A stretch of DNA of 64,000 nt. Origin: an uncultured Alphaproteobacteria bacterium. GTDB lineage: Bacteria > Pseudomonadota > Alphaproteobacteria > CAZZKF01. Position 1 is the stretch's first letter, and the number at the start of each line of letters is the position of its first letter. The stretch is taken from contig CAZZKF010000002.1 in assembly GCA_964654995.1 (NCBI GenBank), positions 3,113-67,112 on the forward strand, read 5' to 3'. The notes beneath the pieces were generated by a model. That model ran no database searches. It was not told the DNA's origin and was given only the letters and a program-made list of their open reading frames with translations. The position numbers and the translations under genes were made by a program. Below, piece after piece: positions 475 through 16,580 of this stretch.

Positions 475-2151
475 TCACATCGCGTGGGCGCTGACCTGCG
501 TGATCTTGCGGCCGATATCGAAGCGATAGAGCCGATCATGCGCATGATCGATGCGGAAATACCAGTTCTTGCCGCCGGCCAGATCGAGCCGCGAGACCAC
601 CTTGGCGTTGCGCCAGTTGACACCCAGGACGCTCAGCACCAGGCGTTTTCGCTTCTTCTTGCCGACCTGCAGATAGACCATGTAGTAGCTCCGGCTCTTG
701 GGCGAGATTGCCGGCATGGCGCCGGTCTCGATCACCGCCCGGTCGGCGATCTCGGGGTCGGAGAACAGCGTCGACCACTGAATGAGCCGCATGTCGGGGT
801 CGAAAATCATGATGTGGTGCCGGCCGCGGATGATGACATCGCGCCCCACAAGCTCGGCCGACAGTGGCAAATCCCCGTATTCGATGCCGCGCGAGCCCAT
901 GCCCAGCATGCCGCCGCCGCCCTTGGTGCCGCCCAGGCTGCTGGTCTTGGAAAAGCCGCCGCCAATGGAAAAGCCACCCGATTTTTCCTTGAAAATGCCG
1001 AACAGGCGATCCCAGCGCAGCGGCGATTCGATCCGCGCAATCCCACTGTTCAGGCTCAGGCCGACGACATGGGCGGCATCGGCAAAGATCACCAGCCCGC
1101 GTGTCCGGTCGATCACCAGATTGGTGATCCCGCCCTCGGCATCCATGTAGCGCCAGCGGACCTTGCCGCCCTCGCGGTTGATGGCGGCGACGCCAAAGGG
1201 TTTTCGCGCCTCCAGCCTGGCCCCCGTGGTAAACACGCCGCCGAGCCGGGCCAGCACCACGTCGCCCGCCACCCGCAGCTCCGAGACAAGGGGGGTGCCG
1301 CGCAGCTTGGCCTGCCACAGCGTCTTGCCGCTGACCCGGTCAAAGGCCATGACCAGGCCGGCGCCGGCGGCATAGACGGTATCGCCGTCAACCAAAGGTA
1401 CCGCCCGGGCGTGGCGCAAGGTTCCGTCGCCGGTCCTGAACGTCGTGCCCCACTTGAGGCGGCCGCTGCCAAGGTCATAGGCGTGCAGCCCGAGGTAGGG
1501 GATGTACAGGGTATCGCCATCGACGACCGCTTCGGGAAAGCGCGCCAGGCCAGGCCCCGTGCCCTTCCCGCCACGGCCGCGGGTTTTTCCGTTGCCCAGC
1601 AGCCGCGCCTTCGTACCCGTATATTTGACCTGCCACAAGGGCGCGCCGTCGGACAGGTCGTAGGCCTGCATGTAGATACCGCTGTCCTTGCGCTTTTTGG
1701 CTTTGACGTCGGCAAACAGGATCGCCATGTGATGGCTTGGCGCCGGCACGACGCCGCCGAGGCGGGCGGTGTAACCGTCGATCTGCCACGCCGTTTCACC
1801 ATTTTTCAGATCGACGGCATACAGGGTCGTCGTGCGCTTGCGGCGCTTGCCGGTGGTCACCGGGATCAGCACCAGATCTTCGCCGTCCAGGGCGTGGACC
1901 TGGGCGCGGGCGATTCCTTTCAGGTCATTCCGGGTCCAGAGAACGGCGCCGGTCTCGGCCTCATGGCGTGCCAGCCCGGCCTCGGCCATCAGCAACAGAT
2001 CGCCATTCGCCATGACCCGGTGCCAGGCCGGCGGTTTCTTGAACTCCAGCCGCCAGAGCTCGCCGGCGGTCGCCGCCTGCCCGGCCAGGACGATGCTGAC
2101 GGCGATGATGCCGAGCAGCCAGACCCCGCGCAATGCCTTGATTGCCTTCAT
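475..2151 (-). CDS. secreted PQQ-like beta-propeller repeat protein with a Gly-rich insert
   Basis: 558 aa ORF; N-terminal signal peptide MKAIKALRGVWLLGIIAVSIVLAGQA; repeated '...LYAxDxxxGxxLW' propeller blades (LYAVDLKNGETAWQ, LHAYDLGSGRLKW, VMAFDRVSGKTLWQ); Gly-rich loop GGFSIGGGFSKTSSLGGTKGGGGMLGMG. Confidence 0.65.
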   Translation of the reverse strand: MKAIKALRGVWLLGIIAVSIVLAGQAATAGELWRLEFKKPPAWHRVMANGDLLLMAEAGLARHEAETGAVLWTRNDLKGIARAQVHALDGEDLVLIPVTTGKRRKRTTTLYAVDLKNGETAWQIDGYTARLGGVVPAPSHHMAILFADVKAKKRKDSGIYMQAYDLSDGAPLWQVKYTGTKARLLGNGKTRGRGGKGTGPGLARFPEAVVDGDTLYIPYLGLHAYDLGSGRLKWGTTFRTGDGTLRHARAVPLVDGDTVYAAGAGLVMAFDRVSGKTLWQAKLRGTPLVSELRVAGDVVLARLGGVFTTGARLEARKPFGVAAINREGGKVRWRYMDAEGGITNLVIDRTRGLVIFADAAHVVGLSLNSGIARIESPLRWDRLFGIFKEKSGGFSIGGGFSKTSSLGGTKGGGGMLGMGSRGIEYGDLPLSAELVGRDVIIRGRHHIMIFDPDMRLIQWSTLFSDPEIADRAVIETGAMPAISPKSRSYYMVYLQVGKKKRKRLVLSVLGVNWRNAKVVSRLDLAGGKNWYFRIDHAHDRLYRFDIGRKITQVSAHAM

Positions 2152-2270
2152 GATTTCCCCCCCATTGAAGATCAGCCCGCGAGCCTAGCCTAGCACATTT
2201 GCGCTTGCGCCGCTGTGACCATGCGGATCCGCCCCTTCGCAAGGCCGGTCAGGGCCGCTAATCTTGCGCC

Positions 2271-2717
2271 ATGAAAGCGGTGTTGCAGCGGGTCAGCGAG
2301 GCGGCGGTGACGATCGACGGCGCCGAACACGCGAAGATCGGGCCGGGGCTGGTCATCCTGCTGTGTGTGGAACCGGATGATGATGCCGAGCGCGCCGCCT
2401 GGTTCGCCCGCAAGATCGCGCATATGCGCATCTTCGCCGATGCGGCCGGTAAATCGAACCTCTCGGTCCGCGATGTCGGCGGCGCCGCCCTGGTAATCAG
2501 CCAGTTCACCCTTGCGGCCGACTGGCGCAAGGGCAATCGCCCGGGCTATGCACGCGCCGCCGCGCCGGAGCTGGCCAAACGCCTTTATGACGACTTCTGC
2601 GCCCGGCTGTCCGGGCACGGCGTACCGGTGGTCACCGGCGTCTTTGGTGCCGACATGAAGGTTCGCCTCACCAACGACGGGCCGGTGACCATCTGGATGG
2701 ACTCACGGGATCGCTAG
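2271..2717 (+). CDS. dtd: D-aminoacyl-tRNA deacylase
   Basis: 148 aa, MKAVLQRVSEAAVTIDG...SQFTLAAD...TGVFGADMKVRLTNDGPVTIW, canonical Dtd length and motifs. Confidence 0.85.
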   Translation: MKAVLQRVSEAAVTIDGAEHAKIGPGLVILLCVEPDDDAERAAWFARKIAHMRIFADAAGKSNLSVRDVGGAALVISQFTLAADWRKGNRPGYARAAAPELAKRLYDDFCARLSGHGVPVVTGVFGADMKVRLTNDGPVTIWMDSRDR

Positions 2718-2721
2718 TCTG

Positions 2722-2744
2722 CGGCGATCAGCCGTCGCCGTTTT
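2722..2744. terminator. candidate intrinsic terminator after dtd (hairpin cggcga-N7-tcgccg followed by TTTT), overlapping the last codons of the convergent gene
   Basis: Seen in sequence: cggcgatcagccgtcgccgtttt immediately after dtd TAG. Confidence 0.3.
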
Positions 2745-3177
2745 CCTCGAACTCGTCATCGCCATTATCGTTGTCCGTCGGCTGGATGAGTTCGAACTTG
2801 CCCAGGCCGCAGGTGGTGCCGCGCCGGAGCACGGTGATGGTATCGACCGAGCACAGACGGTTGATCGAGGTCGCATAGGCGAAGCCGTCCTCGAACCGCA
2901 GCCCGTTGCATTCATAGGGCAGCTTGTTGCGATAGGTCTTGCCGGAGCGCATGTGAAACAGGATCGTCGAATCATCGACAATCTCGGTCTCGCGAATGCG
3001 GTCGACCTGCAGGCAGTAGGGTGGGCCGGCGGCCTCGATCCGGGCCTTGTCCTTCTTCGGGGCCTTGGCCGCATCGGCCTCGCCCGCCATGGCAGTCGCC
3101 GAGGCAAGAAGCGCAGCGCCAGCGATCAACGTGACCATACCGGTACATCTGTGTTTGATCATCGATCTTCTCCTCAT
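2728..3177 (-). CDS. small secreted hypothetical protein (4 Cys, acidic C-terminal tail)
   Basis: ORF with signal peptide MIKHRCTGMVTLIAGAALLASATAMA (likely true start at the internal Met ~3162); mature part has C-x33-C-x19-C-x12-C and tail DNDNGDDEFEENGDG; immediately downstream of and co-oriented with the SBP gene. Confidence 0.45.
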   Translation of the reverse strand: MRRRSMIKHRCTGMVTLIAGAALLASATAMAGEADAAKAPKKDKARIEAAGPPYCLQVDRIRETEIVDDSTILFHMRSGKTYRNKLPYECNGLRFEDGFAYATSINRLCSVDTITVLRRGTTCGLGKFELIQPTDNDNGDDEFEENGDG

Positions 3178-3201
3178 CTGTCCCGTGGCTGTCGGCCGCG
3201 T

Positions 3202-4833
3202 CTACTGGGCAATGTTCTGGCCGGGACCGGCCTTTTCGATCCACATCCAGCGGGTCGGATGCCAGTTCCCGGCATTGTCCGCATATCCCTTCACATAGGG
3301 TTTCACCAGGTGGGTGTTAACCCCGAAGTACAGCGGAATGACCGGCAAGTCCGATATCAGGACCTCCTCCGCGCGGCGCAGGATGCCGGCCCGCTTGTTC
3401 AGATCCAGTTCGCGGTTGGCGGCGTCCAGCAGGGCGTCGTACTCGGGATTGCGATAATCGGGCGTGTTCATCGGCCCGGCATCCGAGCGGAAGATTTCGA
3501 GAAAGGTGTAGGGATCGTTGTAATCACCGACCCAGGCATCGCGGGCGATCTCGTACTGTTTCAGATTGCGGCTGTTGATCAGCGCCTTCCATTCCTCGTT
3601 GCGCAAGGTAGTCTTCACGCCGAGGCGCTTCCACATGGCAGCGATTGCTACCGCCAGCTTCTTGATCGATTCACTGGTGTTGTAGAGGATTTCGACCTTG
3701 AGCGGATTATCCCGCGTATAACCCGCCTCTGCTATCAGCTTTTGCGCCAGCGCCAGGCGCTCAGCCTGGCTCATCCCTGCCCATTCCGGCTCCCACTGCT
3801 GATGGTTGGCGACGATGGGGGGCACCATGGTAAAGGCCGGGATCTGGCCCTGGCGCAAAATCTTGTCGACCAGAATACGGCGGTCGATGGCCAGCATCAG
3901 GGCCTTGCGCACCCGCGGGTCCTTGAACTTTTCGCGCCGCATGTTGATGTCGTAATACTGGATGACCAGCCCCGGCGCTGCATGCAGCTCGTCGGGAATG
4001 TTCTCCTTGATCCACTTGAGCGCGCTCAGCGCCACCGTCGAGGTATAGTCCAGCTCGCCGGCCCGGTAGCGCTTCACCTCGGTCGCCACATCCTCGGTAT
4101 TGACGAAATAGACGGTGTCGATCCGCACATTCGCGGCATCGTGGAAGTAGGGGTTTTTGACCAGCTTGATGTGCGACTGCGGCTCCCATTCGACCAGCTT
4201 GTAAGCGCCGTTGGAAACCAGATTGCCGGGCTTGATCCATTGGCTGCCCTTTTCCAGCAGCGTCCTGCGATGGACCGGAAAGGTCGTCGAATGGGTGAGC
4301 AGCCCGAGGAAATAGGGCGTCGGCTTCGACAATGTGATCTGCAACGTGCGGTCATCGAGCGCCTTGACGCCCAGGGCATCGACGTCCTTGAGGCGCCCCG
4401 ACGAGATCTCCGGGGCGTTCAGGATCGGATTGACGATGAAGGCATAGGGCGCGGCCGTGGCTGGATTGACCAGGCGTTTGAGCGCGAATTCAAAATCCTG
4501 CGCAGTCACCGGATCGCCGTTCGACCAGCGGCCGTCGGCGCGCAAGTGGAAGGTGTAGACGAGGCCGTCGTCGCTCACCTCCCAGCGCTCGGCGGCACCC
4601 GGGATCAATGTCCCGTCCGCCTTTTCGGTGATCAGCCCTTCGAACAGATCGCGCTGAATGTGCGACGACGGCGTGCCCTGGGCCAGATGCACGTCGAGCG
4701 TCTGGGGCTCGGTGCCGTTGCCGCGCCGCAGTACCATCTCCGCCATCGCCGGCCAGGAAGCGGCAAGCAAGACAAACAGGAAAACGAAGGCCATGGCCGC
4801 GGCTCCGCACCGGCGGCCCCTGAATGTGTTCAT
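3202..4833 (-). CDS. ABC transporter substrate-binding protein, family 5 (oligo/dipeptide OppA/DppA/MppA-like), paralog 1
   Basis: ORF 3202..4914; probable start at Met 4833 giving signal peptide MNTFRGRRCGAAAMAFVFLFVLLAASWPAMA; family-5 SBP hallmarks (RRGNGTEPQTLD..., WSNGDPVTAQDF, NPYFHDA, ILYNTSE). No permease/ATPase genes adjacent. Confidence 0.85.
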   Translation of the reverse strand: MNTFRGRRCGAAAMAFVFLFVLLAASWPAMAEMVLRRGNGTEPQTLDVHLAQGTPSSHIQRDLFEGLITEKADGTLIPGAAERWEVSDDGLVYTFHLRADGRWSNGDPVTAQDFEFALKRLVNPATAAPYAFIVNPILNAPEISSGRLKDVDALGVKALDDRTLQITLSKPTPYFLGLLTHSTTFPVHRRTLLEKGSQWIKPGNLVSNGAYKLVEWEPQSHIKLVKNPYFHDAANVRIDTVYFVNTEDVATEVKRYRAGELDYTSTVALSALKWIKENIPDELHAAPGLVIQYYDINMRREKFKDPRVRKALMLAIDRRILVDKILRQGQIPAFTMVPPIVANHQQWEPEWAGMSQAERLALAQKLIAEAGYTRDNPLKVEILYNTSESIKKLAVAIAAMWKRLGVKTTLRNEEWKALINSRNLKQYEIARDAWVGDYNDPYTFLEIFRSDAGPMNTPDYRNPEYDALLDAANRELDLNKRAGILRRAEEVLISDLPVIPLYFGVNTHLVKPYVKGYADNAGNWHPTRWMWIEKAGPGQNIAQ

Positions 4834-4968
4834 GATTGCAAACACCCATGTGTTGAAAGACGGTCGTTGAGGCTCAGGAAAGGCCACCGGGACGGGCTTG
4901 TCAACCGGTGGCATGCATGATCGGCCGGTCGGCGTCAGGTCGGGACGCCGGCGTCCGGGGCATTGTTT

Positions 4969-5988
4969 TCACGGGCGCTCCTGGTACGCGAACATCAGCA
5001 GCAGGGTACGTTGTGCCGGGTTGAAATTGTCGTCCGAGAGCAGATAGACAAGGATCTCGCCGTCTTCGCTCCGGCGGATATCGATCGCCTCCATGTTGTC
5101 GATGGAAAGCGGCGGCGCCAGGCGGGCGACCTCGAGCGGGTGCAGCTCGGCGCCGGCAACCACCGCCGCCGCCGGCAGCCGGACCAGGCGAAGCCCCAGG
5201 CCCTCCGACCAGGAAAAACGGCGTTCGAGGATCAGCAGATCGCCATCCGGCAGGCGCGCCGCCCCGGTCGGGCGGTAGCTGCCGAGGCGCCGGTAGCGCA
5301 GTTGCGCCCACGCTCCGTCGCGCCGGAGAAAGACCTGGCCCCGGGCTTCCCCCTTGCCTTCGGCGACTGCCAGGAGGCTGTTGTCGGTCAAGGTCACGAG
5401 CGCCTCGATACCGTTGTTTTTGGGCAGCTTGACGAAACCGGCCGGCGCCGGCACGGGTACCGCCGGGCCACGCAACGGCGCCTCGCCCGCGGCATACCGC
5501 CAGAGACGGTGTTGGCGCTCGAAAGCGACCAGAATCGATCCGTCCGCCATGCGGGCCATCGCCTCGGCGTCCTGTTCGCTCTTGCCTTTCAGTGGTCTGC
5601 CGGCGGTATCACGCAGGGGACCCGTCCAGCCATCGGAGAGGCCGGTCAGAAAACCATCGGCATCATAGGAGATGGCCGCCGCGAGCCAGGATCCTTCATC
5701 GGCCACCGCGATCAGCTCCCGCCCGTCGGCAGAGACCAGCAGGCCGGACAGCCCACCCATGCGGGTGTTCGGGAAGGTGATCTCGATGCCGCCGCGCCAG
5801 GCCAGGCGCCGGCCAACGCGCATCTGCTCCGGCGCCGCCCGGTTCAATGGTACCGGGCGCGTCATGATCTCGATTTTCCTGGCGCCGGCATCCGGCGCGG
5901 CCGCCGCCCAGGCTATGGCCGAGGCTACCAGAACCACGCCGATGACGGTCGCCGCGACGCCATGGCTGCCGGTGTTCGGCGGTCTCAT
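4969..5988 (-). CDS. secreted esterase-like-activity-of-phytase family protein
   Basis: C-terminal 340 codons of minus ORF 4969..6774; start at Met ~5988 gives signal peptide MRPPNTGSHGVAATVIGVVLVASAIAWAAAAP; body GGLSGLLVSADG...NNGIEALVTL...NMEAIDI resembles the phytase-like esterase family. The upstream 260 codons of the table ORF are antisense to the PP-loop gene and are not called. Confidence 0.5.
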   Translation of the reverse strand: MRPPNTGSHGVAATVIGVVLVASAIAWAAAAPDAGARKIEIMTRPVPLNRAAPEQMRVGRRLAWRGGIEITFPNTRMGGLSGLLVSADGRELIAVADEGSWLAAAISYDADGFLTGLSDGWTGPLRDTAGRPLKGKSEQDAEAMARMADGSILVAFERQHRLWRYAAGEAPLRGPAVPVPAPAGFVKLPKNNGIEALVTLTDNSLLAVAEGKGEARGQVFLRRDGAWAQLRYRRLGSYRPTGAARLPDGDLLILERRFSWSEGLGLRLVRLPAAAVVAGAELHPLEVARLAPPLSIDNMEAIDIRRSEDGEILVYLLSDDNFNPAQRTLLLMFAYQERP

Positions 5989-6132
5989 GATATCCTTGTC
6001 CCGCCTGTCGAAAGCCAGACCTCGCGGTTCAGAAAAGGCCACCGCACAGAGCTTGTCAACCGGCGCCGCTTGACCGCCGGGCCCGCCGCATGGAACTCTT
6101 CCGCCCCAGCCGAAGCCGGAACAAGGATTGCG

Positions 6133-6849
6133 ATGTCCGTGACGACACCCGAATCCAAGCCTGAAGATGCGCCCTGTCCGGTTGCCGTCTCGTGGAGCGG
6201 CGGCAAGGACAGCGCGCTGATGCTGCAGGCGCTGAGGCGCGATCCCCGGTATCGTCCGGCCGCCCTGCTGACCACCGTGACCGGGCCGGATGCGCGAATC
6301 AGCTATCACCGGGTGCGCGTCGACCTGCTCGATCGCCAGGCGGCGGCGCTCGATCTGCCGCTTTACAAGATGGTGCTGACGGCCGAGCACGCCCCCAACA
6401 CAGAATACATCCGCGCCTTCGGTGAAAGCGCCGCACGCCTGCGCGAGGCCGGGATCGACACCATCGCCTTCGGCGACATCTTTCTCGAAGACCTGCGCCG
6501 CTGGCGCGAGGAGCGGATGGCCGAGATCGATATGCACCCGATCTTTCCGATCTGGGGGCGCGACAGTGTCGAACTGATGGATGAATTCCTCACCACCGGC
6601 TTTCGCGCCCGCCTGGTCTGCGTGGATGCGAAAAAACTGGGCCGCGATTTCGCCGGCCGGCTGCTGGACCGCGCCCTGCTTGACGATCTGCCCGACGGCG
6701 TCGATCCGTGCGGCGAGAACGGCGAATACCATTCTTTCGTCTTCAACGGCCCCGGCTTTACCGCTCCCGTGCATCTGCGTGTTGGCCAGATCGAGGCCCG
6801 GGACGGGCGGTTTTACGCCGACCTGATGGTGGAGGATGCAGCGCCGTGA
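6133..6849 (+). CDS. PP-loop ATP pyrophosphatase, Dph6/MJ0570-related (diphthine-ammonia-ligase-like) family
   Basis: Real start is the internal ATG at 6133 of ORF 4963..6849 (upstream part is antisense noise); MSVTTPESKPEDAPCPVAVSWSGGKDSALMLQAL..., PP-loop SGGKDS, 238 aa typical for bacterial COG2102 proteins. Confidence 0.75.
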   Translation: MSVTTPESKPEDAPCPVAVSWSGGKDSALMLQALRRDPRYRPAALLTTVTGPDARISYHRVRVDLLDRQAAALDLPLYKMVLTAEHAPNTEYIRAFGESAARLREAGIDTIAFGDIFLEDLRRWREERMAEIDMHPIFPIWGRDSVELMDEFLTTGFRARLVCVDAKKLGRDFAGRLLDRALLDDLPDGVDPCGENGEYHSFVFNGPGFTAPVHLRVGQIEARDGRFYADLMVEDAAP

Positions 6850-7652
6850 CCGGCGTGCCCGAACGCATCGTCTGTTTGAGCGCCGAGACGGTGGATCTGC
6901 TCTACCGGCTGGGCGTCGGCGATCAGGTGGTCGGAGTGTCCGGCTATACAGTGTTTCCGCCGCAAGCCCGCAAAAAGCCGTTCGTGTCCGCCTTCACTTC
7001 GATCCGTTACGAGGTGATCGACGAGCTCAACCCCGACCTCATTCTGGCCTATTCCGACCTTCAGGCCGAGGCGGCCGCCGAGCTCGGCAAGAAGGGCTAT
7101 CCGGTGGTGCTCACCAACCAGCGCAATCTCGACGAATGTTTCGAGACCTTCGCGCTCATCGGCCGCATCGTCGGGTGCGCCTGCGAGGCGGACGCCCTGA
7201 TCGCCGATCTGACACAGCGTCTGGAGTCCGCACGGGCCGGCGCCGCCGAGGCCGGCGGTCGACGCCCGCGGGTGTTTTTCGAGGAGTGGGACGAGCCGCT
7301 GATTTCCGGCATCGGCTGGATCGACGACCTGATCCGGGCGGCCGGTGGCGAGCCGGTCTTTCCCGAACTCGCCAGTGCCCGTGCCGCCGGTGATCGCATC
7401 GTCTCACCCGATGCCGTGGTGACGGCCGCGCCCGATATCGTCATCGCCTCATGGTGCGGGCGCAAGGCGAACCTGGCGCGCATCCGGGCACGCCCGGGCT
7501 GGGAAACAATCCCGGCGGTGCAAACGGGCGCGATCCACGAGATCAAATCGGCTTATTGCCTGCAGCCCGGCCCGGCGCTTATCACCGAAGGCCTGCCGCG
7601 TTTCATCGATATCATCGACGACTGGCGGACCCGGGTGCAACAAAGCGCCTGA
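6846..7652 (+). CDS. BtuF/FecB-like (cobalamin/siderophore type) periplasmic-binding-protein fold protein without signal peptide
   Basis: GTG at 6846 overlaps the upstream TGA (GTGA coupling); VTGVPERIVCLSAETVDLLYRLGVGDQVVGVSG... aligns with the mature N-terminus of BtuF-type binding proteins; conserved W/PDIVIASWCG/PGPALI features; no hydrophobic leader. The 6708..6845 extension in the ORF table overlaps the upstream gene and is rejected. Confidence 0.65.
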   Translation: MTGVPERIVCLSAETVDLLYRLGVGDQVVGVSGYTVFPPQARKKPFVSAFTSIRYEVIDELNPDLILAYSDLQAEAAAELGKKGYPVVLTNQRNLDECFETFALIGRIVGCACEADALIADLTQRLESARAGAAEAGGRRPRVFFEEWDEPLISGIGWIDDLIRAAGGEPVFPELASARAAGDRIVSPDAVVTAAPDIVIASWCGRKANLARIRARPGWETIPAVQTGAIHEIKSAYCLQPGPALITEGLPRFIDIIDDWRTRVQQSA

Positions 7653-7688
7653 GCCCGGCGGCAAACCGCCGGGACTTGGCCACCGACG

Positions 7689-8168
7689 CTACTTGCTGTC
7701 TTTCGCCTCGATATGGCGATGCGCCAATTCGGTCTTGGTGCGGGCCAGGGTCGCTGTATAGCGTGCGAACAGGGCCTGGGCTTTCTCCGCCCCGCCTTCC
7801 TGTTCGGCCAAAGCGGCCCAGAAAGCCTCGGTGCGCGGGCTGGTGATCCAGTTGAATGCCGCCGGCCCTTCCGTCAGACGAAAGTAGGCGGCACTGTCCC
7901 AGGGACCGGTCTGAAAATCGATGATCGTCGCCGGATTGCCGGCCTTTTTGCCGGCCGGCACAAGATGGTCGTAAATGAGCTTGTAGCCCTCGTCGCTCTT
8001 GCCCGGTTTGAAGGCGATATAGAGCACGCTGTAATAGATGACATTTTCGCGCTTTTCCGCCTTCGGCAGATCGGCGGCCGAGGCCGGCAGGGCAGCCAGC
8101 ACAATGCCGACGGCGATGACGGTTGCGCACAGCGCACGCATGGGTGTTGCGATCGTGGATGCGATCAT
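7689..8168 (-). CDS. secreted hypothetical protein
   Basis: ORF 7689..8231; likely start MIASTIATPMRALCATVIAVGIVLAALPASAADL (signal peptide); no recognisable family. Confidence 0.4.
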   Translation of the reverse strand: MIASTIATPMRALCATVIAVGIVLAALPASAADLPKAEKRENVIYYSVLYIAFKPGKSDEGYKLIYDHLVPAGKKAGNPATIIDFQTGPWDSAAYFRLTEGPAAFNWITSPRTEAFWAALAEQEGGAEKAQALFARYTATLARTKTELAHRHIEAKDSK

Positions 8169-8300
8169 TGGTTGCTCCCCCCGTTTTTCGGATAGCGTAT
8201 CCCTCATCCGCACCGGAATGATGCAGACCAACCGAGAGTAGTCTATCCGCGCTAGTCTGTCGCGAATAATCGGTACAAGGAGAACGGCGGCAAACGGCCC

Positions 8301-8408
8301 TCAGATTCGCTCCGGCACCAGATCGTTCGTCCGGGCAATGATTTTGCGCATCATCTCGGAAGTGCCGGCGCCGACCGTGAATCCCAGCGAATCGCGGGCC
8401 AGAATCAT
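8301..8408 (-). pseudogene. 35-codon remnant resembling the C-terminal helices of an acyl-CoA dehydrogenase
   Basis: Own translation: MILARDSLGFTVGAGTSEMMRKIIARTNDLVPERI*, compare the ACAD C-terminal consensus ...ARDxRIxQIYEGTSEIQRLIIAR...; AAGGAGG 6 nt upstream of the ATG; lies between the SBP-2 stop (8451) and the hypothetical secreted gene. Confidence 0.35.
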
Positions 8409-8450
8409 CGCGGCCCTCCTTGGTGTTCAGGCCCGGGCCGGAGGCGCCGG

Positions 8451-10100
8451 TCAGCGGGCGATGTTCTGGCCCGGGCCGGTCTTGTCGATCCACATCCAGC
8501 GGGTCAGATAACGGCCCATGATATTGCCCTGAAAGCCCTTGAGGTAGGGCTTGACCATGTGCCGGTCGACATAGAAATAGATCGGGATGATGGGGAGATC
8601 CTCGAGCATCACCGCTTCCGCCTTGGCCAGCAGGTCGGCCCGGCGCTCCGGATCAAGCTCGCGATTGGCGGCATCCAGCAGCGCGTCGAATTCGGGATTG
8701 GCATAGCCCGGATTGTTCATCGGCCCGGCATCCGAGCGCAAAATCTCAAGAAATGTGTAAGGATCGTTGTAATCGCCGATCCAGCCGTCGCGCGCGACCT
8801 CGAACTGCTTCAGGTTGCGGCTGTTGATCAGCGCCTTCCATTCCTCGTTACGCATCGAAGTGACCACCCCGATGCGCTTCCACATGGAGGCAATGGCAAT
8901 GGCGATGCGCTTGTGATCCTCCATGGTGTTGTAGAGGATTTCGACTTTCAGCGGTTGCTCCCGCGAATAGCCGGCCTCTGCCATCAGCTCCCTGGCTTTC
9001 TTCGTACGCTGGGCTTGCGTCCACTTGGCCCACTCGGGTGTGACCGGGCGGTGGTGGGCGGTGGCCGGCGGCACGAAGGAATAGGCCGGAATCTGTCCCT
9101 GCCGGGTGATCTTGTTGGCGATCACCTCGCGGTCGATCGCCATATTCAGCGCCTTGCGCACCCGCGGGTCCTTGAACTTGTCGTTTTCCAGATTGATGTC
9201 GTAGTAATAGGCGCCGAGATACGGCGTGATGCTGGCCTCAGCCTTCAGATTCTTCATCACCCAGCGGTAATCGGTGAGCGAGATGACATAGGTGAAATCG
9301 AGCTCGCCAGCCCGGTACTGTTTCATCTCGGCCGCCGTGTCTTCGGTCGGGTAGTAGATCACCTTGTCGATGCGGACATTCTCGGCATCGTGGAAGTAGG
9401 GGTTCTTGACCAGCGTGATATGTGACTGCGGCGCCCATTCGGTGAGCTTGTAGGCGCCGTTCGAGATCATGTTGCCGGGCTTGATCCATTTGGTGCCCAG
9501 CGCCTCGACGCTCTTGCGGTGCACCGGATACATGCTGGAGTGCGTCAGCATGCCCAGGAAATAAGGGGTCGGGCGCTCAAGCGTGATCCTGAGCGTCAGG
9601 TCGTCAACCGCCTCGACGCCCATTTTGGACAAATCCGTCTCGGCGCCCGAGGCAATCGCCTTGGCGTTCAGAATCGGATAGGCGATGAAGGCATAGGGCG
9701 CCGCGGTCGCTGGATTGACCAGCCGGCGCATGGCATAGACGAAATCCTGTGCGGTGACCGGATCACCGTTCGACCAGCGCCCGTCCTTGCGCAGATGGAA
9801 GGTGTAGACGGTGCCATCGTCGCTGATTTCCCAGCGCTCTGCCGCGCCGGGAATGAGCGTCGCGTCCATCGCTTCGGTCACCAGGCCTTCGAACAGATCG
9901 CGCTGAATGTTCGATGCCCCCACCCCTTGCGAGGTATGCACATCCAGGGTCTCCGGCTCGGCGCCGTTGCCACGGCGCAAGACGGTCTCCGCCGCCACGC
10001 CGGGCGCAAACACGCCGGCCAGCAGGACCATGCCCGCCAGCACGGCCAGGGCCCGAAGGCCGGTTCCTGCTCGTGGTATCACGCTCACTCCCCTCCCCAT
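8451..10100 (-). CDS. ABC transporter substrate-binding protein, family 5 (oligo/dipeptide-type), paralog 2
   Basis: 549 aa, about 70% identical to the 3202..4833 product over most of the length (ETVLRRGNGAEPETLDVH..., WSNGDPVTAQDF identical); signal peptide; alternative GTG start 18 nt downstream with GGGAGGGGAG SD. No transporter membrane components adjacent. Confidence 0.85.
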   Translation of the reverse strand: MGRGVSVIPRAGTGLRALAVLAGMVLLAGVFAPGVAAETVLRRGNGAEPETLDVHTSQGVGASNIQRDLFEGLVTEAMDATLIPGAAERWEISDDGTVYTFHLRKDGRWSNGDPVTAQDFVYAMRRLVNPATAAPYAFIAYPILNAKAIASGAETDLSKMGVEAVDDLTLRITLERPTPYFLGMLTHSSMYPVHRKSVEALGTKWIKPGNMISNGAYKLTEWAPQSHITLVKNPYFHDAENVRIDKVIYYPTEDTAAEMKQYRAGELDFTYVISLTDYRWVMKNLKAEASITPYLGAYYYDINLENDKFKDPRVRKALNMAIDREVIANKITRQGQIPAYSFVPPATAHHRPVTPEWAKWTQAQRTKKARELMAEAGYSREQPLKVEILYNTMEDHKRIAIAIASMWKRIGVVTSMRNEEWKALINSRNLKQFEVARDGWIGDYNDPYTFLEILRSDAGPMNNPGYANPEFDALLDAANRELDPERRADLLAKAEAVMLEDLPIIPIYFYVDRHMVKPYLKGFQGNIMGRYLTRWMWIDKTGPGQNIAR

Positions 10101-10194
10101 GCGAACGGCTTTCCACCGTCGCCTATCAAGCTAGAAGATGATTGTGGCGAAATCCAGACCGGCCGGCGGCCTGCAATCGCGCCCATGCGCCGGC

Positions 10195-11058
10195 CTAAGC
10201 CCGTGCCGAACACGCCCAGGCGGCGCCGGGAAGCGAGGCTCGCGTGCCGTCGTGATAAGGCGCGAGGACTTTCGCCACCACCGTCTCGGCCCGCCTGATC
10301 GTTTCTTCGTCGGCCTCCGCCAGCAGCCGCGCCACCGGGCCCAACCGAAGGATCAGCCGGGTGACGTCCTCAAGCGTGCCGGTGCCGCCGATGATCATCT
10401 GCCGGTCCATCGGCTCGATCGAAATCTGGGCAAAGCCGGCGCCCTCGAGGATGGCTTCGATGCGGGCCCGCTCGGCCATCGAAAACGGGCCCGGCGCACC
10501 GGGTTCCGGTTCCGGCACTTCGATGAATTCGGCCACTGCCTGGATCGGCAAGGCCGCCCACGGGTTGTCCGAGAGCGCCCGCCAGCAGGCAAACGCAATC
10601 CGGCCGCCGGGCTTGAGCGCGCGGCGCAGATTGGCGAATGCCGCCACCGGATCGGTAAAGAACATCACGCCAAAGCGCGAAAAGATGGCATCGAAGACGG
10701 CGTCGGCGAAGGCATAGGTGGCGGCGTCGGCATTGATGATCTCGACATTGGCAAGCCCCGCCTCGGCGACGCGCTCACGGGCCCGGGCCAGCATCGGCGC
10801 CGAGATGTCCACCGCCGTCACATGGCCACTCTCGCCGACGCGTGCCGCCAGTTGCAGCGCCGTCTGGCCGCAGCCGCAGCCGACATCGAGCAGCCGCTCG
10901 CCCGGCGCCGGGGCAAGGCGATCCATGACCTCGAGGCCGAATCCCTCGATCTGCTGATCCAGCAGCTCCTGAAAGGCGACCCATTTGGCGCCGGCTTCGG
11001 CATTCCAGTATTCGATCTGATCGGCGTTGGGACCGGCGGCTTCGATTGTCTGCATCAT
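10195..11058 (-). CDS. class I SAM-dependent methyltransferase
   Basis: Start at [14 protein letters not shown] (CAGGAGAG SD upstream); [18 protein letters not shown] motif I; upstream 67 codons of the table ORF not called. Confidence 0.7.
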
Positions 11059-11186
11059 GCGCTCTCCTGGGTTTCGGCGCCCCGACCTTAGGATACCGCA
11101 TGGCCCCTGCCAAGAGGGCAACGCACGCTTGCCGCCATGCGCGTCATGAACTAAGTAGACGGCGTAACTCCCAACACGAGCGGACC

Positions 11187-11906
11187 ATGACCGAAGCCGA
11201 GCAAAACAAGGCGGTTGTGCTGCTGAGCGGCGGGCTCGACTCGGCGACCGTTCTGGCAATTGCCGCCGATCAAGGCTATGCGCTGCATGCCCTGACCTTT
11301 CGCTATGGCCAGCGTCACGCCGTCGAGATCGAGGCGGCGCGCCAGATCGCCGCCCGCACCGGTGTTGCCGCCCATACGATTGTCGACATCGACCTGCGCC
11401 GCTTCGGTGGCTCGGCGCTGACCGATGCCATTGCCGTACCCAAGCACCGCTCGGATGCCGAGATCGCTGACGGCATCCCGATCACCTATGTGCCGGCCCG
11501 CAACACGATCTTTTTGAGCTATGCGCTGGCCTGGGCCGAAGTTCTGGGATGCGGCGACATTTTCATCGGAGTCAACGCGCTGGATTACTCCGGTTATCCC
11601 GACTGCCGGCCCGAATTCATCGCCGCCTTCGAGCGCGTCGCCAACCTCGGCACCAGGGCGGGGGTGGAAGGCCGCCGGGCGATTCGCATTCACGCGCCGC
11701 TGATCGAGCTGACCAAGGCCGAGATCATCGCCCGCGGCCTCGCGCTCGGCGTCGATTACGGTTTGACCACAAGCTGCTACGACCCGGACGAGCGTGGCGC
11801 CGCCTGCGGCGCCTGCGATTCCTGCCGGTTGCGCCTCAAGGGCTTTGCCGAACTGGGGCGCCAGGACCCCCGCCCCTATCGCCCAAGGGCAGAGGTGACG
11901 CCGTGA
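11187..11906 (+). CDS. queC: 7-cyano-7-deazaguanine synthase
   Basis: [26 protein letters not shown]... PP-loop SGGLDS, C-terminal CxxC...C zinc motif ([17 protein letters not shown]). Confidence 0.9.
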
Positions 11907-12541
11907 CCTACGCGGTCAAGGAAATCTATTTCACCCTTCAGGGCGAGGGCGCGAATGTCGGGCGCGCCGCCGTCTTCTGCCGCTTTGCGGGCTGCAATCT
12001 GTGGTCGGGCCGTGAAGAGGACCGGGCAAGCGCCATCTGTTCCTTTTGCGATACCGATTTCGTCGGCACCGATGGCCCCGGCGGCGGCCGGTTCGAGACG
12101 CCGCAGGCGCTGGCCCGGGCGGTCCGCGCCGCCTGGCCCACGGATGGAGACTCTGACCGAGCCTTGCTGGTCTGCACCGGCGGCGAGCCGGCCCTGCAAC
12201 TGGACGCGGCGGCGACCCGCGCCTTTCACGACGCCGGCTTCGAGGTGGCGATCGAGACCAACGGCACCCGGCCGATCCCCGCCGGCGTCGACTGGATCTG
12301 CGTCAGCCCCAAGGCCGGAACGGACCTGGTGGTGCGCCGTGGCGACGAGCTGAAACTGGTCTACCCGCAGGCCGGGGCCGAACCGACACTTTACGAAGGG
12401 CTCGATTTCCGGCATTTCTTCCTGCAGCCGATGGACGGGCCGGATCGGGACGATAACACCCGGGCCGCCCTCGCCTACTGCCTGGCCCACCCGAAGTGGC
12501 GGCTCAGCCTGCAGACCCACAAATATCTCGGCATCGCCTGA
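11903..12541 (+). CDS. queE: 7-carboxy-7-deazaguanine synthase (radical SAM)
   Basis: GTG overlapping queC stop (GTGA); [36 protein letters not shown]... typical QueE N-terminus with CxxxCxxC-like cluster. Confidence 0.85.
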
Positions 12542-12553
12542 AAGACCGGGTCC

Positions 12554-12910
12554 ATGGAAATCTACAAGGAATTCTCGTTCGAGGCCGCCCACCGCCTGCC
12601 GAATGTGCCGGAGGGGCATAAATGCGCGCGGCTGCACGGGCATTCATTCCAGGTGGTGGTCCATGTCGCCGGTGCGATCGACGAGCATCGCGGCTGGGTC
12701 GCCGATTTCGCCGATATCCGCGATGCCTTTGCGCCCTTGCTGCGCCAGCTCGACCACACCTACCTCAACGAGGTCGAGGGGCTGGAAAACCCGACGTCGG
12801 AAAACATCGCCCGCTGGATCTGGACGCGCCTCGCCCCCGTCCTCCCCGGTCTTTCCAGGATCGTCATCCGCGAGACCTGTACCGCCGGGTGCATCTACAC
12901 CGGCGACTGA
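12554..12910 (+). CDS. queD: 6-carboxy-5,6,7,8-tetrahydropterin synthase
   Basis: 118 aa MEIYKEFSFEAAHRLPNVPEGHKCARLHGHSF... CxxxHGH motif. Confidence 0.85.
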   Translation: MEIYKEFSFEAAHRLPNVPEGHKCARLHGHSFQVVVHVAGAIDEHRGWVADFADIRDAFAPLLRQLDHTYLNEVEGLENPTSENIARWIWTRLAPVLPGLSRIVIRETCTAGCIYTGD

Positions 12911-12911
12911 C

Positions 12912-13265
12912 TTATCTTCCCCGACTCTTTGCCGCCCGCGCCCTGAACGCCGAGTCCAATGCCCGGCGCCCCCATTCGGCCATCTCGTCGGGGTCGTCGA
13001 ACACCGTGTCCGGCGCCTCGAAATACGAGCGCATTTCACGTATGCCTTCCCGCCTGTTGTAGGTGAACGGGGCAAGGCCCTGTTCCTCGAACAGCGGCCG
13101 GGTGTCATCGTCGACCCGAAGATACAGGCGCTCGGAGAAAATCAGCGCAAACATCACGTCGCCAACGAACAGCCCCCAGCCGCCGAACATGCGGCGTGGG
13201 TCGGGCGCCAGCTCAGGCCCCATGAGTTCGACCACGTAAGCGACGAACTCGGGTGGGCCGGACAA
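12912..13265 (-). CDS. TfoX/Sxy N-terminal-domain family protein
   Basis: 117 aa; ...MFGGWGLFVGDVMFALIFSERLYLRVDD... resembles the TfoX_N domain; last gene of the isc-like string. Confidence 0.5.
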   Translation of the reverse strand: MSGPPEFVAYVVELMGPELAPDPRRMFGGWGLFVGDVMFALIFSERLYLRVDDDTRPLFEEQGLAPFTYNRREGIREMRSYFEAPDTVFDDPDEMAEWGRRALDSAFRARAAKSRGR

Positions 13266-13268
13266 GGC

Positions 13269-13604
13269 CTAAAGCCCCAGCAGGTTGCGGGTTTCCGGTG
13301 GCAGGCGCACCACCAGACCGTCAAGATCGTCGGTCAGCACAAGCTGGCACGACAGCCGCGAGGTCGGGGCGATATGGGCGGTGAGGTCCAGCATGTCGCG
13401 CTCTTCCTCCGACGGCGGCGGCAGCCGGTCATAGAAACGGGGATCGACGATCACATGGCAGGTGGAGCACGCCATCGAGGCTTCGCACGCGCCTTCCATG
13501 TCGATGCCATTGGCCTGGGCGATGTCCAGCACGCTTTCGCCTGCCGGGGCGTTGACTCGGGCGAGAATGCTGCCATCCGCAGCTTGAAAGATGATTTCCG
13601 GCAT
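13269..13604 (-). CDS. fdx: [2Fe-2S] ferredoxin, adrenodoxin/ISC type
   Basis: 111 aa; GACEASMACSTCHV...C pattern of Fdx (CxxxxxCxxC...C). Confidence 0.8.
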   Translation of the reverse strand: MPEIIFQAADGSILARVNAPAGESVLDIAQANGIDMEGACEASMACSTCHVIVDPRFYDRLPPPSEEERDMLDLTAHIAPTSRLSCQLVLTDDLDGLVVRLPPETRNLLGL

Positions 13605-13626
13605 GTGTTTGGGACCAACTCCGACT

Positions 13627-14805
13627 TCAGGCCGCCTGGCTGCGCAGGCGCTCGACCTGGGCGCTTACTGTCTCGATGGCAAAATCGATTTCCTGCTCGC
13701 TGGTGAACCGGCCGAGGCCGAAGCGAACGGCCGCTGCCACCTCGTCATCCGCCAGCCCCAGCGCGGCCAGCACATGCGAGGGCTCGCGCTCGGCCGAGGC
13801 GCAGGCCGCCCCCCAGGACACCGCTAGGTCGCGAAGGCCGGCGATCAGCAGATCGGAGCGCACGCCTGCAAAGCTCAGGTTGAGGTTTCCGGGCCAGCGC
13901 CGGGTCGCATGGCCGTTGAGACGCACGCCCGACAAGCGTTCCCGCAAGCCATCGAGCAGGCGCTTCGACAAAGTTTGGATGCGGGCACGATCGGCCTCCA
14001 TCTCCTGGGCTGCCAGCGCACAGGCCGTGCCCAGCCCGACGCATTGGGCCGGGGCCAGCGTGCCGGAGCGCACCCCCATTTCCTGGCCACCGCCGGAAAA
14101 CAGCGGCTCCAGCCGGATGCGGCGGCGGCGATAGAGCGCGCCCACGCCCTTGGGACCGTAAATCTTGTGGCCCGAGATGCTCATCAGGTCAATGTTCATG
14201 GCCTTCACGTCCAGCGGGATCTTGCCGACCCCTTGCGCCGCGTCGGTGTGAAACAGAACCCCATGGGCGTGCGCCAGCGCGCCGATTTCCGCCAACGGCT
14301 GAATTACGCCGATTTCGTTGTTCACCGCCATGACCGAGATCAGAACCGTGCGCTCGGTGATCGCCGCCGCAAGCGCGTCGAGATCAATGAGCCCGTCCGC
14401 ATCGACCGGCAGATAGGTGACCGCAAAGCCCTCGCGCTCCAGGGACCGCGCCGACTCTAGAACGCATTTATGCTCGGTGGACACGGTGATGAGGTGATTG
14501 CGCCGCGCGCCATAGGCCCGCGCCACGCCCTTGAGCGCCAGATTGTTGGACTCGGTGGCGCCCGAGGTAAAGACGATGTCGCGGGGCTCGGCGCCGATCA
14601 GGGCGGCCACCTGCTCACGCGCCCGCTCGACCGCCTCGGCCGCCTCCCAGCCAAAAACGTGGGAGGTCGAATGGGGGTTGCCGAAGGTGTCGGTCAAGTA
14701 CGGCATCATCGCGTCCAGCACCCGCCGATCGAGTGGCGTGGTCGCCTGATAATCCATATAGACCGGTAACTTAAGGCCTTTTTCCTGGCTTTCGGATGAA
14801 GGCAT
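13627..14805 (-). CDS. iscS: cysteine desulfurase (IscS-type)
   Basis: LPVYMDYQATTPLD (IscS N-terminus; true start may be Met ~14757), SxHK PLP lysine (SISGHKIYGPKGVGALY), C-terminal SSGSACxS-like catalytic Cys (AACASAER). Confidence 0.85.
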   Translation of the reverse strand: MPSSESQEKGLKLPVYMDYQATTPLDRRVLDAMMPYLTDTFGNPHSTSHVFGWEAAEAVERAREQVAALIGAEPRDIVFTSGATESNNLALKGVARAYGARRNHLITVSTEHKCVLESARSLEREGFAVTYLPVDADGLIDLDALAAAITERTVLISVMAVNNEIGVIQPLAEIGALAHAHGVLFHTDAAQGVGKIPLDVKAMNIDLMSISGHKIYGPKGVGALYRRRRIRLEPLFSGGGQEMGVRSGTLAPAQCVGLGTACALAAQEMEADRARIQTLSKRLLDGLRERLSGVRLNGHATRRWPGNLNLSFAGVRSDLLIAGLRDLAVSWGAACASAEREPSHVLAALGLADDEVAAAVRFGLGRFTSEQEIDFAIETVSAQVERLRSQAA

Positions 14806-14808
14806 GAC

Positions 14809-15975
14809 CTAACGTCCCAGTGCCCGCTGCTTGCCGGAGTCCGGGTCGGCCGGCGCCGTACCCACCAGCCTTTCATAAAGCGCCAGCCAGCAGCTTGCAA
14901 AGGCTTCGACATCCTGGGCCTGCGTTGTCCAGCCGAGGCTGATGCGAATCGCCTGGCCAGCCAGCTCCGGCGCGACGCCCATCGCGACGAGCACCGACGA
15001 GGCCCGAACCTTGCCGGACGAACAGGCCGAGCCGGCGCTGACCGCGAAGCCGTCGAGATCGAAGGCGATCACCTGGGTCTCGGCCGCCACGCCGGGCATC
15101 GCCAGGCACGAGGTGTTGGCCAGCCGTGGCGCTTCGGCACCGAACACCTGCACCTCCGGGACCGCGTGGCGCAGCCGCGCCTCGAGCCGGTCGCGCAGGT
15201 CGGCCAGCGCCGCGAAACGCTCGAGATTGTCGCCTGCGAGCCGCGCCGCCACACCGAAGCCGACAATGCCCGGCAAATTCTCGGTGCCCGAGCGTCGCCC
15301 GGATTCCTGGCCGCCGCCAATGATGCGGGCAGCGACCTGCGTGCCCTCGCGCATAACCAGCGCGCCGACACCCATCGGCCCGGCGATCTTGTGGGCCGAC
15401 AGGCTCAGATAATCGACGCCCAGGGCGGCAAAATCGATGGCGATCTTGCCGGCCGCCTGCACCGCGTCGCAATGGACGCGGGCACCGCGGGCGCGGGCCA
15501 GGGCGGCAATTTCGGCGACCGGCTGAATGACGCCGGTTTCATTGTTGGCCAGCATCACCGAGACCAGATCGCCCTCACTCAGACTCTCGAATTCGGTGGC
15601 GCACCGATCGATGTCGATACGGCCATCCCGTGTGACCGGAAGGATACGAACCTCACGGCCGCTGTGCTCGGCCGCCGCCTGCACCGACGGGTGCTCGATC
15701 GCCGAGATGAACAGGCGCCGCGCCCCGGATTCCAGCACCGCCATATTGTTGGCCTCGGTGCCGCCACTGGTAAAGACGATCTGGCGCGGCTCAACCCCGA
15801 CCAGGCCGGCGACTTCTGCGCGCGCATCTTCGATCATCCGCCGCGCGCGCCGCCCCGGGCCATGCACCGACGAGGGATTGCCGACGCACTCCAGTGCCCG
15901 CGCCACCGCCTCGGCGACTTCCGGGCGCACGCACGTCGTCGCATTGTGATCCAGATAAACCGATGTGCCGGTCAT
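14809..15975 (-). CDS. second cysteine desulfurase (NifS-like)
   Basis: Start MTGTSVYLDHNATT at ~15975; SLSAHKIAGPMGVGALV, SAGSACSSG; upstream 78 codons of table ORF not called. Confidence 0.8.
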   Translation of the reverse strand: MTGTSVYLDHNATTCVRPEVAEAVARALECVGNPSSVHGPGRRARRMIEDARAEVAGLVGVEPRQIVFTSGGTEANNMAVLESGARRLFISAIEHPSVQAAAEHSGREVRILPVTRDGRIDIDRCATEFESLSEGDLVSVMLANNETGVIQPVAEIAALARARGARVHCDAVQAAGKIAIDFAALGVDYLSLSAHKIAGPMGVGALVMREGTQVAARIIGGGQESGRRSGTENLPGIVGFGVAARLAGDNLERFAALADLRDRLEARLRHAVPEVQVFGAEAPRLANTSCLAMPGVAAETQVIAFDLDGFAVSAGSACSSGKVRASSVLVAMGVAPELAGQAIRISLGWTTQAQDVEAFASCWLALYERLVGTAPADPDSGKQRALGR

Positions 15976-16000
15976 GGCACAGCCTGAATGAATTGGCGGA

Positions 16001-16513: not shown

Positions 16514-16580
16514 AAGATTTCTCCCCCTTGCGCCGGTCGGAACGAAAGCCGCCCGCCGGCCTCAAGTCACATTGACAGGC

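Follow-up and report, generated by a model that had tools for sequence, protein, structure and literature searches.

Two paralogous solute-binding protein genes of an uncultured alphaproteobacterium probably enclose an ordinary chromosomal mosaic and not a captured insert

The window analysed here, 64 kb of DNA from an uncultured alphaproteobacterium, contains on its minus strand two genes for OppA-family solute-binding proteins (SBPs), SBP1 (3202-4833; Pfam SBP_bac_5, E 2e-90) and SBP2 (8451-10100; SBP_bac_5, E 3e-93), and the stretch between them (4915-8450) had been described as insert-like, with cargo captured or retained between the copies. Read from SBP1 towards SBP2, it starts with a direct-repeat copy (copy A, 4830-4933, minus strand) that comprises the putative promoter and leader of SBP1 up to its ATG, followed by the gene for a secreted phytase-like esterase of 339 amino acids (4969-5988, minus strand; PF13449, E 1.6e-40, with an N-terminal signal peptide) and by copy B of the repeat (5985-6086, minus strand), which lies before the esterase gene. 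Next come two plus-strand genes, encoding a PP-loop protein of 238 amino acids (Diphthami_syn_2, DUF71-B12 type; 6133-6849; PF01902, E 5e-30) and a leaderless BtuF-like class-III binding protein of 268 amino acids (6846-7652; Peripla_BP_2, E 1e-42). A GC-rich hairpin read from the sequence, CCCGGCGG-N4-CCGCCGGG (7654-7673), separates them from two minus-strand elements, the gene for a secreted hypothetical protein of 159 amino acids with a predicted NIPSNAP/dimeric alpha-beta-barrel fold (7689-8168) and a 35-codon open reading frame (ORF) that appears to be a C-terminal relic of an acyl-CoA dehydrogenase (ACAD) gene (8304-8408; Acyl-CoA_dh_1, E 0.0012). With respect to content and order, four genes and an ACAD tail between two minus-strand SBP genes, the preliminary description agrees with what Pfam and the G+C content of third codon positions (GC3) reveal. 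Our comparisons indicate that the stretch is probably an ordinary chromosomal mosaic of old and younger parts that has been inherited vertically.

The nearest available relative is L081, an ENA metagenome contig that carries the protein P0003 and reaches only to window position 16784, so that the claim of conserved core synteny for the rest of the window could be examined up to that point. Its gene order is NifS-NifS-Fdx-TfoX-QueD-QueE-QueC-methyltransferase-SBP-Peripla_BP_2-Diphthami_syn_2-SBP (P0003)-DUF6491-like-Dtd-PQQ_2. Orthologues in the window and in L081 share 74-89% protein identity and ~80% DNA identity, and colinear blastn blocks cover 475-4912, 6029-7653, 8450-9994 and 10216-16784. 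Absent from L081 are only 4913-6028 and 7654-8449 (about 1.2 and 0.8 kb), and at these two sites the L081 junctions are compact (143 nt and 23 nt). Since L081 has SBP2, the BtuF-like gene, the PP-loop gene and SBP1 in the same order, the SBP duplication as well as the gene pair predate the split from L081. Thus, the idea of one captured insert does not hold, because the SBP-pair-SBP order is kept and only two sub-segments differ, while the claim that part of the stretch is variable between relatives was borne out by exactly these two segments.

The composition of the stretch gives no sign of a foreign origin. GC3 (0.76-0.82) and a codon adaptation-like index (0.65-0.71) of the four genes lie inside the range of 25 other genes in the window, and the codon-usage comparison that had been proposed as a check for an insert marks all four as native. 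No tRNA was found in the stretch, none of its ORFs matched an integrase or transposase, and Rfam returned no match there, neither a cobalamin riboswitch nor any other RNA element. A plasmid or mobile origin was considered and rejected: the stretch gives only short gene-level plasmid matches (67-70%), and the gene for the 159-amino-acid protein, an ORFan, gives none. With no mobility gene, no tRNA, a native composition and a core that is present in L081, the stretch does not have the properties of a genomic island. Wider relatives were searched as well; a scan of genome contigs found nothing above 61%, and a scan of metagenomes nothing above 51% for the PP-loop protein. An independent JGI assembly contains two contigs of the same organism (L163 and L164, 99.97 and 99.4% identical to the window), which cover 5618-16215 and 1014-5744 with unchanged gene order; the arrangement is therefore real and not an assembly artefact.

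The two SBPs share 65% protein identity and ~72% DNA identity; the flanking pair that had been reported is thus confirmed, but the figure of ~70% identity given for it does not hold for the proteins. We placed the start of SBP1 at 4833 according to its L081 orthologue (the NCBI call is 4794, the longest ORF reaches to 4914). In both proteins the SBP_bac_5 profile is matched over 365 of 368 positions, and the best PDB matches are OppA structures (E 3e-132 for SBP1; 1b05 with E 9e-137 for SBP2). The scores against the NCBIfam OppA equivalog (498 and 521 bits) lie under its cut-off of 947, and judged by these profiles both SBPs are members of the OppA family and not OppA equivalogs. Their segment ARD(A/G)W(V/I)GDYNDP aligns to ARAGWCADYNEP of 1b05, and the equivalents of the peptide-anchoring OppA residues Arg413 and Asp419 are retained in all four SBPs of the window and L081. 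At the position of the OppA pocket residue His371, SBP2 and its L081 orthologue have His, as does P0004, a protein from a Sphingomonadales metagenome-assembled genome (MAG); SBP1 and its L081 orthologue have Ile. The G+C content of the SBP genes is 58-61%, which we considered and rejected as a sign of foreign origin, as GC3 is normal (0.81-0.82) and the lower value stems from the first two codon positions and hence from amino-acid composition.

DNA similarity between SBP1 and SBP2 is confined to the coding sequence. Upstream of it, alignment scores do not rise above background, and the 100 nt past the two stop codons show no significant likeness (score 9 versus 7.8 +/- 1.3; 250 of 1000 shuffles reach it), for which reason we rejected the idea that the start of the downstream gene was part of the duplication. 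Identity limited to coding regions with deep divergence is just the outcome that the preliminary description had named as speaking against its own proposal. Each SBP is far closer to its own L081 orthologue (85-87% for SBP1, 87-89% for SBP2) than to the other copy (64%), and the dN between paralogues (0.29-0.31) is about four times that between orthologues (0.07-0.08), which gives the duplication an age several times that of the split from L081. The dN/dS ratios between orthologues (0.11 for SBP1, 0.12 for SBP2) show that both copies are held by strong purifying selection.

In a search of 5.8 billion proteins, each of the two SBPs was closest to the other one, to the two orthologues in L081 and to P0004; for SBP2 the nearest were SBP1 (65%), P0004 (63%) and P0003 (62%). 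The four paralogues of the window and L081 group with P0004 in 100% of the bootstraps of a neighbour-joining tree, and each pair of orthologues has the same support. This supports the view that the SBP pair is the product of a lineage-restricted duplication, and to that extent the duplication claimed previously has been upheld. In the Sphingomonadales MAG (L001/L162), P0004 is encoded by a single orphan SBP gene beside queF-queD-queE-queC. Because SBP2 shares with this outgroup both the position beside the queuosine genes and the His371 equivalent, these features mark SBP2 as the copy of ancestral type and SBP1 as derived. In the window (8451-12910), in L081 (3876-8329) and in L162 of the distant Sphingomonadales MAG (6975-11572, here with queF in addition), queuosine genes adjoin an orphan SBP gene of OppA type; this adjacency is older than the SBP duplication. 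To our knowledge, there is no known functional link between an orphan OppA-type SBP and queuosine genes. The term orphan, also used before, is correct within the 64 kb. More distant SBP homologues in L002 and L003 are followed by two ORFs of ~300 amino acids, called permeases by size and N-terminal sequence only. The window also encodes AnmK (anhydro-MurNAc kinase, 18275-19438) and a class-A penicillin-binding protein (31758-34217), and with these genes in the same window a role of one SBP in murein-peptide recycling is conceivable.

The left variable segment, 4913-6028, carries the esterase gene, which is bounded by the direct repeat. The esterase matches PF13449 with 140 bits (gathering threshold 27.6) over profile positions 1-284 of 284 and, as one of four gene calls for which this holds, is identical to a database protein. 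Its homologues are many (60-68% identity; Kiloniellales and other alphaproteobacterial MAGs), and of four contigs that were looked up, three have the homologue (61-68%) next to rpmB, while one breaks off at the homologue, which there adjoins cobT and a gene of the major facilitator superfamily. From these contexts, the position of the esterase in the window is derived at some depth. The break between the two JGI contigs lies inside the esterase gene, where L164 stops at window position 5744 and L163 begins at 5618, and this, together with the lower identity of L164, may reflect strain heterogeneity at this gene.

Copies A and B of the repeat are colinear over ~104 nt with one 2-nt gap, and their local alignment score is 34 versus 9.2 +/- 1.4 in 1000 shuffles. 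Copy A contains CCGGTTGACAAGC, with a TTGACA -35-like box, and GGTGGCCTTTCCTGA; the distance from the box to the ATG is equal in both copies, and the cores of 13 and 15 nt, CCGGTTGACAAGC and GGTGGCCTTTYCTGA, are present at only two sites in the 64 kb, namely in copies A and B. Control alignments revealed no such similarity upstream of SBP2. Judged by this likeness, the esterase gene sits behind a second copy of the putative promoter and leader of SBP1, and because of this position we infer that it is co-regulated with SBP1. A scan for consensus sigma-70 promoters found none in the stretch, and terminator-like sites were not more frequent than in shuffled sequences. L081 has a single copy of the repeat, which aligns to both copies of the window (L081 9925-9963 overlaps both colinear blocks), and the presence/absence difference amounts to one repeat period, 1155 bp. 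This single copy would fit a repeat-mediated deletion in L081 and an insertion with duplication in the window equally well. A and B are 62-68% identical overall, compared with ~72% for orthologous intergenic DNA. In a three-way comparison, B is nearest to L081 in the left third of the repeat and A in the right third.

The right variable segment, 7654-8449 (796 bp), has the GC-rich hairpin as its left edge. The hairpin lies directly 3' of the BtuF-like stop codon, between the convergent genes for the BtuF-like and the 159-amino-acid protein. The latter has a signal peptide, is absent from L081 and has only five homologues among the 5.8 billion proteins (49-52% identity), whose contexts were unrelated in all three cases looked up. 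Its AlphaFold2 model (pLDDT 77) matches PDB 1vqy in Foldseek (E 2.7e-4, target-normalised TM ~0.6), on which the predicted NIPSNAP or dimeric alpha-beta-barrel fold is based. Upstream of this gene and on the same strand, the 35-codon ORF reads MILARDSLGFTVGAGTSEMMRKIIARTNDLVPERI and aligns to the last helix of Acyl-CoA_dh_1 (24 positions, 124-147 of 150); its PDB matches are all C-termini of ACADs, but with E ~1. The ORF is thus a likely relic of the 3' end of a destroyed ACAD gene, as had been suspected for this tail, and would represent a rearrangement scar. A perfect Shine-Dalgarno sequence, AAGGAGG, lies 6 nt upstream of its ATG (8409-8450), and JGI has annotated a gene here in the same organism; instead of being a silent relic, the ORF could be translated into a micro-protein. 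Several sources for the segment were considered and rejected. The window contains no other copy of the relic or the ORFan and no ACAD gene that matches the relic, which removes an intragenomic source within it; a donor locus in which ORFan and ACAD adjoin is not supported, since none of the three homologue contexts contains an ACAD gene; and the relic is not related to an ACAD that a Methylobacterium plasmid carries close to a BtuF-like gene.

How did the two variable segments come about? The reading that survives best, to which we give nearly an even chance, is that both were present in the ancestor and disappeared from L081. Recombination or slippage between the repeats would have removed the esterase unit, and the ORFan together with the ACAD remnant would have gone in a simple deletion that completed the decay of the ACAD gene downstream of SBP2. 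An indel of exactly one repeat period with one copy retained in L081 is what such an event would leave behind, the divergence of the repeats suggests an old duplication, and the truncated ACAD implies that gene decay was already in progress at this site. The outgroup L001/L162, however, shows none of these genes beside its SBP gene, and the esterase family has its usual neighbourhood elsewhere.

A second reading, quite possible though short of an even chance, is that both segments were gained in the lineage of the window after the split from L081. The esterase gene would have been moved or copied from an rpmB-linked site into the leader of SBP1, with duplication of the target, and the ORFan would have come with a neighbouring ACAD fragment. 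None of the esterase homologues in the four contigs inspected is close to an SBP gene (three of them lie beside rpmB), the ORFan is extremely sporadic, and the compact junctions in L081 also agree with a gain. Yet the identity between A and B does not exceed that of orthologous intergenic DNA and hence does not clearly place the duplication after the split; a target duplication of 104 nt would be unusual for an insertion, and no ACAD gene was found upstream of any ORFan homologue examined.

That the two promoter regions resemble each other by functional convergence, as binding sites of a common regulator, and not by duplication, is improbable. The best-conserved part is indeed the -35-like box with the adjacent 15-mer, a possible operator, but the likeness is colinear over ~104 nt with its single 2-nt gap, keeps an identical distance to the ATG and extends past the core motif, and the motif occurs nowhere else in the 64 kb, not even upstream of SBP2. 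Least of all do we believe that an SBP gene underwent segmental duplication comparatively recently and thereby captured all 3.5 kb as island-like accessory cargo, a very improbable history for which one can cite that the SBPs are each other's closest paralogues and enclose unrelated genes, among them a rare ORFan and a gene relic, but against which stand the unlike flanks, the deep divergence, the gene order of L081, the native composition and the lack of a tRNA and of any integrase or transposase match.

The PP-loop and BtuF-like genes between the two variable segments belong to the conserved part of the mosaic. The PP-loop protein is 79% identical to its L081 orthologue and carries the motifs SGGKDS (VSWSGGKDS) and ENGEYH (CGENGEYHSF), the latter in the form CGENGEYHSF also in L081. 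The stop codon of the PP-loop gene shares nucleotides with the start codon of its BtuF-like neighbour, which is consistent with translational coupling, and the two probably form a two-gene operon. The family DUF71/COG2102 has been divided into Dph6 (EGGE/DxE) and the DUF71-B12 subgroup (ENGE[F/Y]H) by de Crecy-Lagard et al. 2012 (PMC3541065); 75 of 102 DUF71-B12 members adjoin BtuCDF-type genes, and a role in the salvage of pseudo-B12 or cobinamide was predicted for them (PMC3541065). The PP-loop protein of the window has the PF01902 domain, SGGKDS, and ENGE[F/Y]H in place of the Dph6 motif, as expected for DUF71-B12; of the clustering with BtuCDF or cbiB, only the adjacent BtuF-like gene is found. 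A genome with a DUF71-B12 gene would further be expected to encode CbiB and to lack bacterial CbiZ. Of 80 loci that contain a homologue of the PP-loop protein, at least 45 carry ENGE[F/Y]H.

The partner has the Peripla_BP_2 domain but is not a typical BtuF. It scores only 51.8 bits against the NCBIfam BtuF model (cut-off 234) and has no signal peptide, and the upstream extension of its reading frame is rich in Arg and lacks a hydrophobic stretch of the signal type; the window encodes neither a FecCD nor an ABC ATPase homologue. The PP-loop homologue (33-51% identity) is followed immediately by a BtuF-like gene, 52-55% identical, in 7 of the 80 metagenome loci, and in annotated metagenome loci the cluster adds a second DUF71 gene, an ABC ATPase and a FecCD permease. 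Every homologue N-terminus that was read (L087, 5077-5868; L093, 5796-6581; L103; L107, 5538-6446; L109, 10716-11627), as well as that in L081, starts leaderless at the mature domain. The protein is leaderless even where FecCD and the ABC ATPase share the cluster, which is odd for the sole nearby binding protein of an importer. A cytoplasmic binding role of the BtuF-like protein may be inferred from these N-termini.

In L103, L104, L107 and L109 (for example L109 5158-13528), the cluster of two DUF71 genes, ABC ATPase, FecCD and BtuF-like gene is located among genes for futalosine-dependent menaquinone synthesis, not B12 genes; these neighbours encode an MqnC-like radical SAM protein, MqnA/VitK2_biosynth and a PNP_UDP_1 nucleosidase. 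A BtuF-like stretch of ~70% DNA identity, annotated as 'cobalamin-binding protein', is found on plasmid pMaq22A_2p (463 kb) of Methylobacterium aquaticum (L172, 77874-78674). There it appears without an adjacent DUF71 gene (the PLSDB gene table is incomplete) and near an IS21 element and genes of acyl-CoA metabolism.

Taken together, the locus probably combines three elements. The first is an ancient duplication, in which an OppA-type SBP gene beside the queuosine genes would have been copied around the split from the lineage of the Sphingomonadales MAG (L001), both copies having been kept by strong purifying selection, SBP2 with the ancestral place and pocket residue and SBP1 with His exchanged for Ile at the His371 position. 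By analogy with MppA, which works with OppBCDF, the two SBPs would serve an Opp-type permease whose genes lie elsewhere and supply it with different peptide-like ligands. The second element is the PP-loop/BtuF-like operon, which was already located between the SBP copies in the common ancestor with L081. If the published prediction applies, the pair would act on cytoplasmic corrinoids, in cobamide salvage or remodelling, with the BtuF-like protein holding the corrinoid for the DUF71-B12 enzyme. The third comprises the two variable segments, the 1155-bp unit, in which the secreted esterase would be driven by the second copy of the SBP1 promoter and leader, and the 796-bp segment with the NIPSNAP-fold ORFan and the tail of the destroyed ACAD.

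Several points weigh against this reconstruction. Conservation was assessed in a single comparison, L081 being the only informative relative in the collections searched, which contained one distant outgroup besides. The duplication node is weakly resolved, with P0004 outside the four paralogues in 60% of the bootstraps and together with SBP1 in 37%. The three-way repeat identities, with which we tried to polarise the 1155-bp indel, are not decisive. No homologue of an Opp permease or ATPase is encoded in the 64-kb window, no cobalamin riboswitch or B12 gene is found near the stretch, and the DUF71-B12 role is itself only a prediction from 2012, for which a literature search found no later experimental follow-up. 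The Acyl-CoA_dh_1 match of the relic, at 19.5 bits, stays below the gathering score of 22.4. Our data comprise 64 kb of one genome, and all functions given here are predictions from sequence.

A further-reaching proposal, speculative and on balance unlikely, is that the PP-loop/BtuF-like pair could be a transporter-independent cytoplasmic module and that, separately, the duplicated promoter may join the relocated esterase and SBP1 as a hydrolyse-and-capture pair. In such a module the leaderless BtuF-fold protein would bind a corrinoid or another large cofactor and present it to the DUF71-B12 enzyme.

The genes around the SBP pair are, up to window position 16784, part of the same synteny with L081. 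To the left of SBP1 are located DUF6491 (2728-3177, minus strand), Dtd (2271-2717, plus strand) and a BamB-like PQQ_2 protein (475-2151, minus strand); to the right of SBP2 follow genes for a methyltransferase, queC/E/D, tfoX, a ferredoxin, two NifS-type genes and an Rrf2 regulator. The G+C content of the window is 65%, so spurious ORFs are frequent, and genes were picked by GC3 and Pfam. Two antiparallel ORFs of more than 600 codons, 4963-6849 on the plus strand and 4969-6774 on the minus strand, cover one and the same 1.8 kb, and each is genuine in one half, the minus-strand ORF as the esterase gene (4969-5988) and the plus-strand ORF as the PP-loop gene (6133-6849). Such a pair is a typical artefact of high G+C content, and a gene caller that prefers the longest ORF would be misled.

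Taken as a whole, the interpretation as an insert is largely refuted by one informative relative, and an apparent accessory region turns out to be old, vertically inherited synteny with two small indels, which should not be treated as an island. The findings amount to ordinary genome evolution, and none of them is surprising to a specialist. The locus nevertheless offers a clean natural example of a gene located behind the duplicated promoter and leader of its neighbour, with the one-copy state preserved in a relative. It also adds a DUF71-B12/leaderless BtuF-like pair stripped of transporter genes, which could help to test the cobamide-salvage prediction; if the module described above exists, it would be a minimal natural system for testing this prediction from 2012.

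Parallels to known systems exist for each part of the locus. Like indels bounded by short direct repeats, the 1155-bp difference corresponds to one period and the relative has one copy, whereas the repeats of the window are diverged promoter and leader copies (62-68%) and not near-identical repeats or att sites. With the DUF71-B12 proteins (PMC3541065) the PP-loop protein shares PF01902, SGGKDS, ENGE[F/Y]H and a BtuF-type neighbour; it differs from them in that BtuC, BtuD, cbiB and a riboswitch are missing nearby, in that the BtuF-like partner is leaderless, and in that related metagenome loci lie among futalosine (mqn) genes instead of B12 genes. The closest parallel to the SBPs is provided by OppA and MppA of E. 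coli and Salmonella (PDB 1b05, 3tcf, 3o9p; PMC3173086), MppA of E. coli being an orphan OppA paralogue that works through OppBCDF (PMC3173086). Unlike this pair, both SBPs of the window are orphans within the 64 kb, lie 3.5 kb apart around unrelated genes and score well under the NCBIfam OppA equivalog cut-off. The fold and the family (SBP_bac_5) are nevertheless the same, with matches to OppA (E 1e-129 to 1e-137) and to MppA (E ~1e-109 to 1e-113), and the locus resembles the known system in the conserved equivalents of Arg413 and Asp419, in a paralogous SBP apart from permease genes and in an altered pocket residue in one of the copies.

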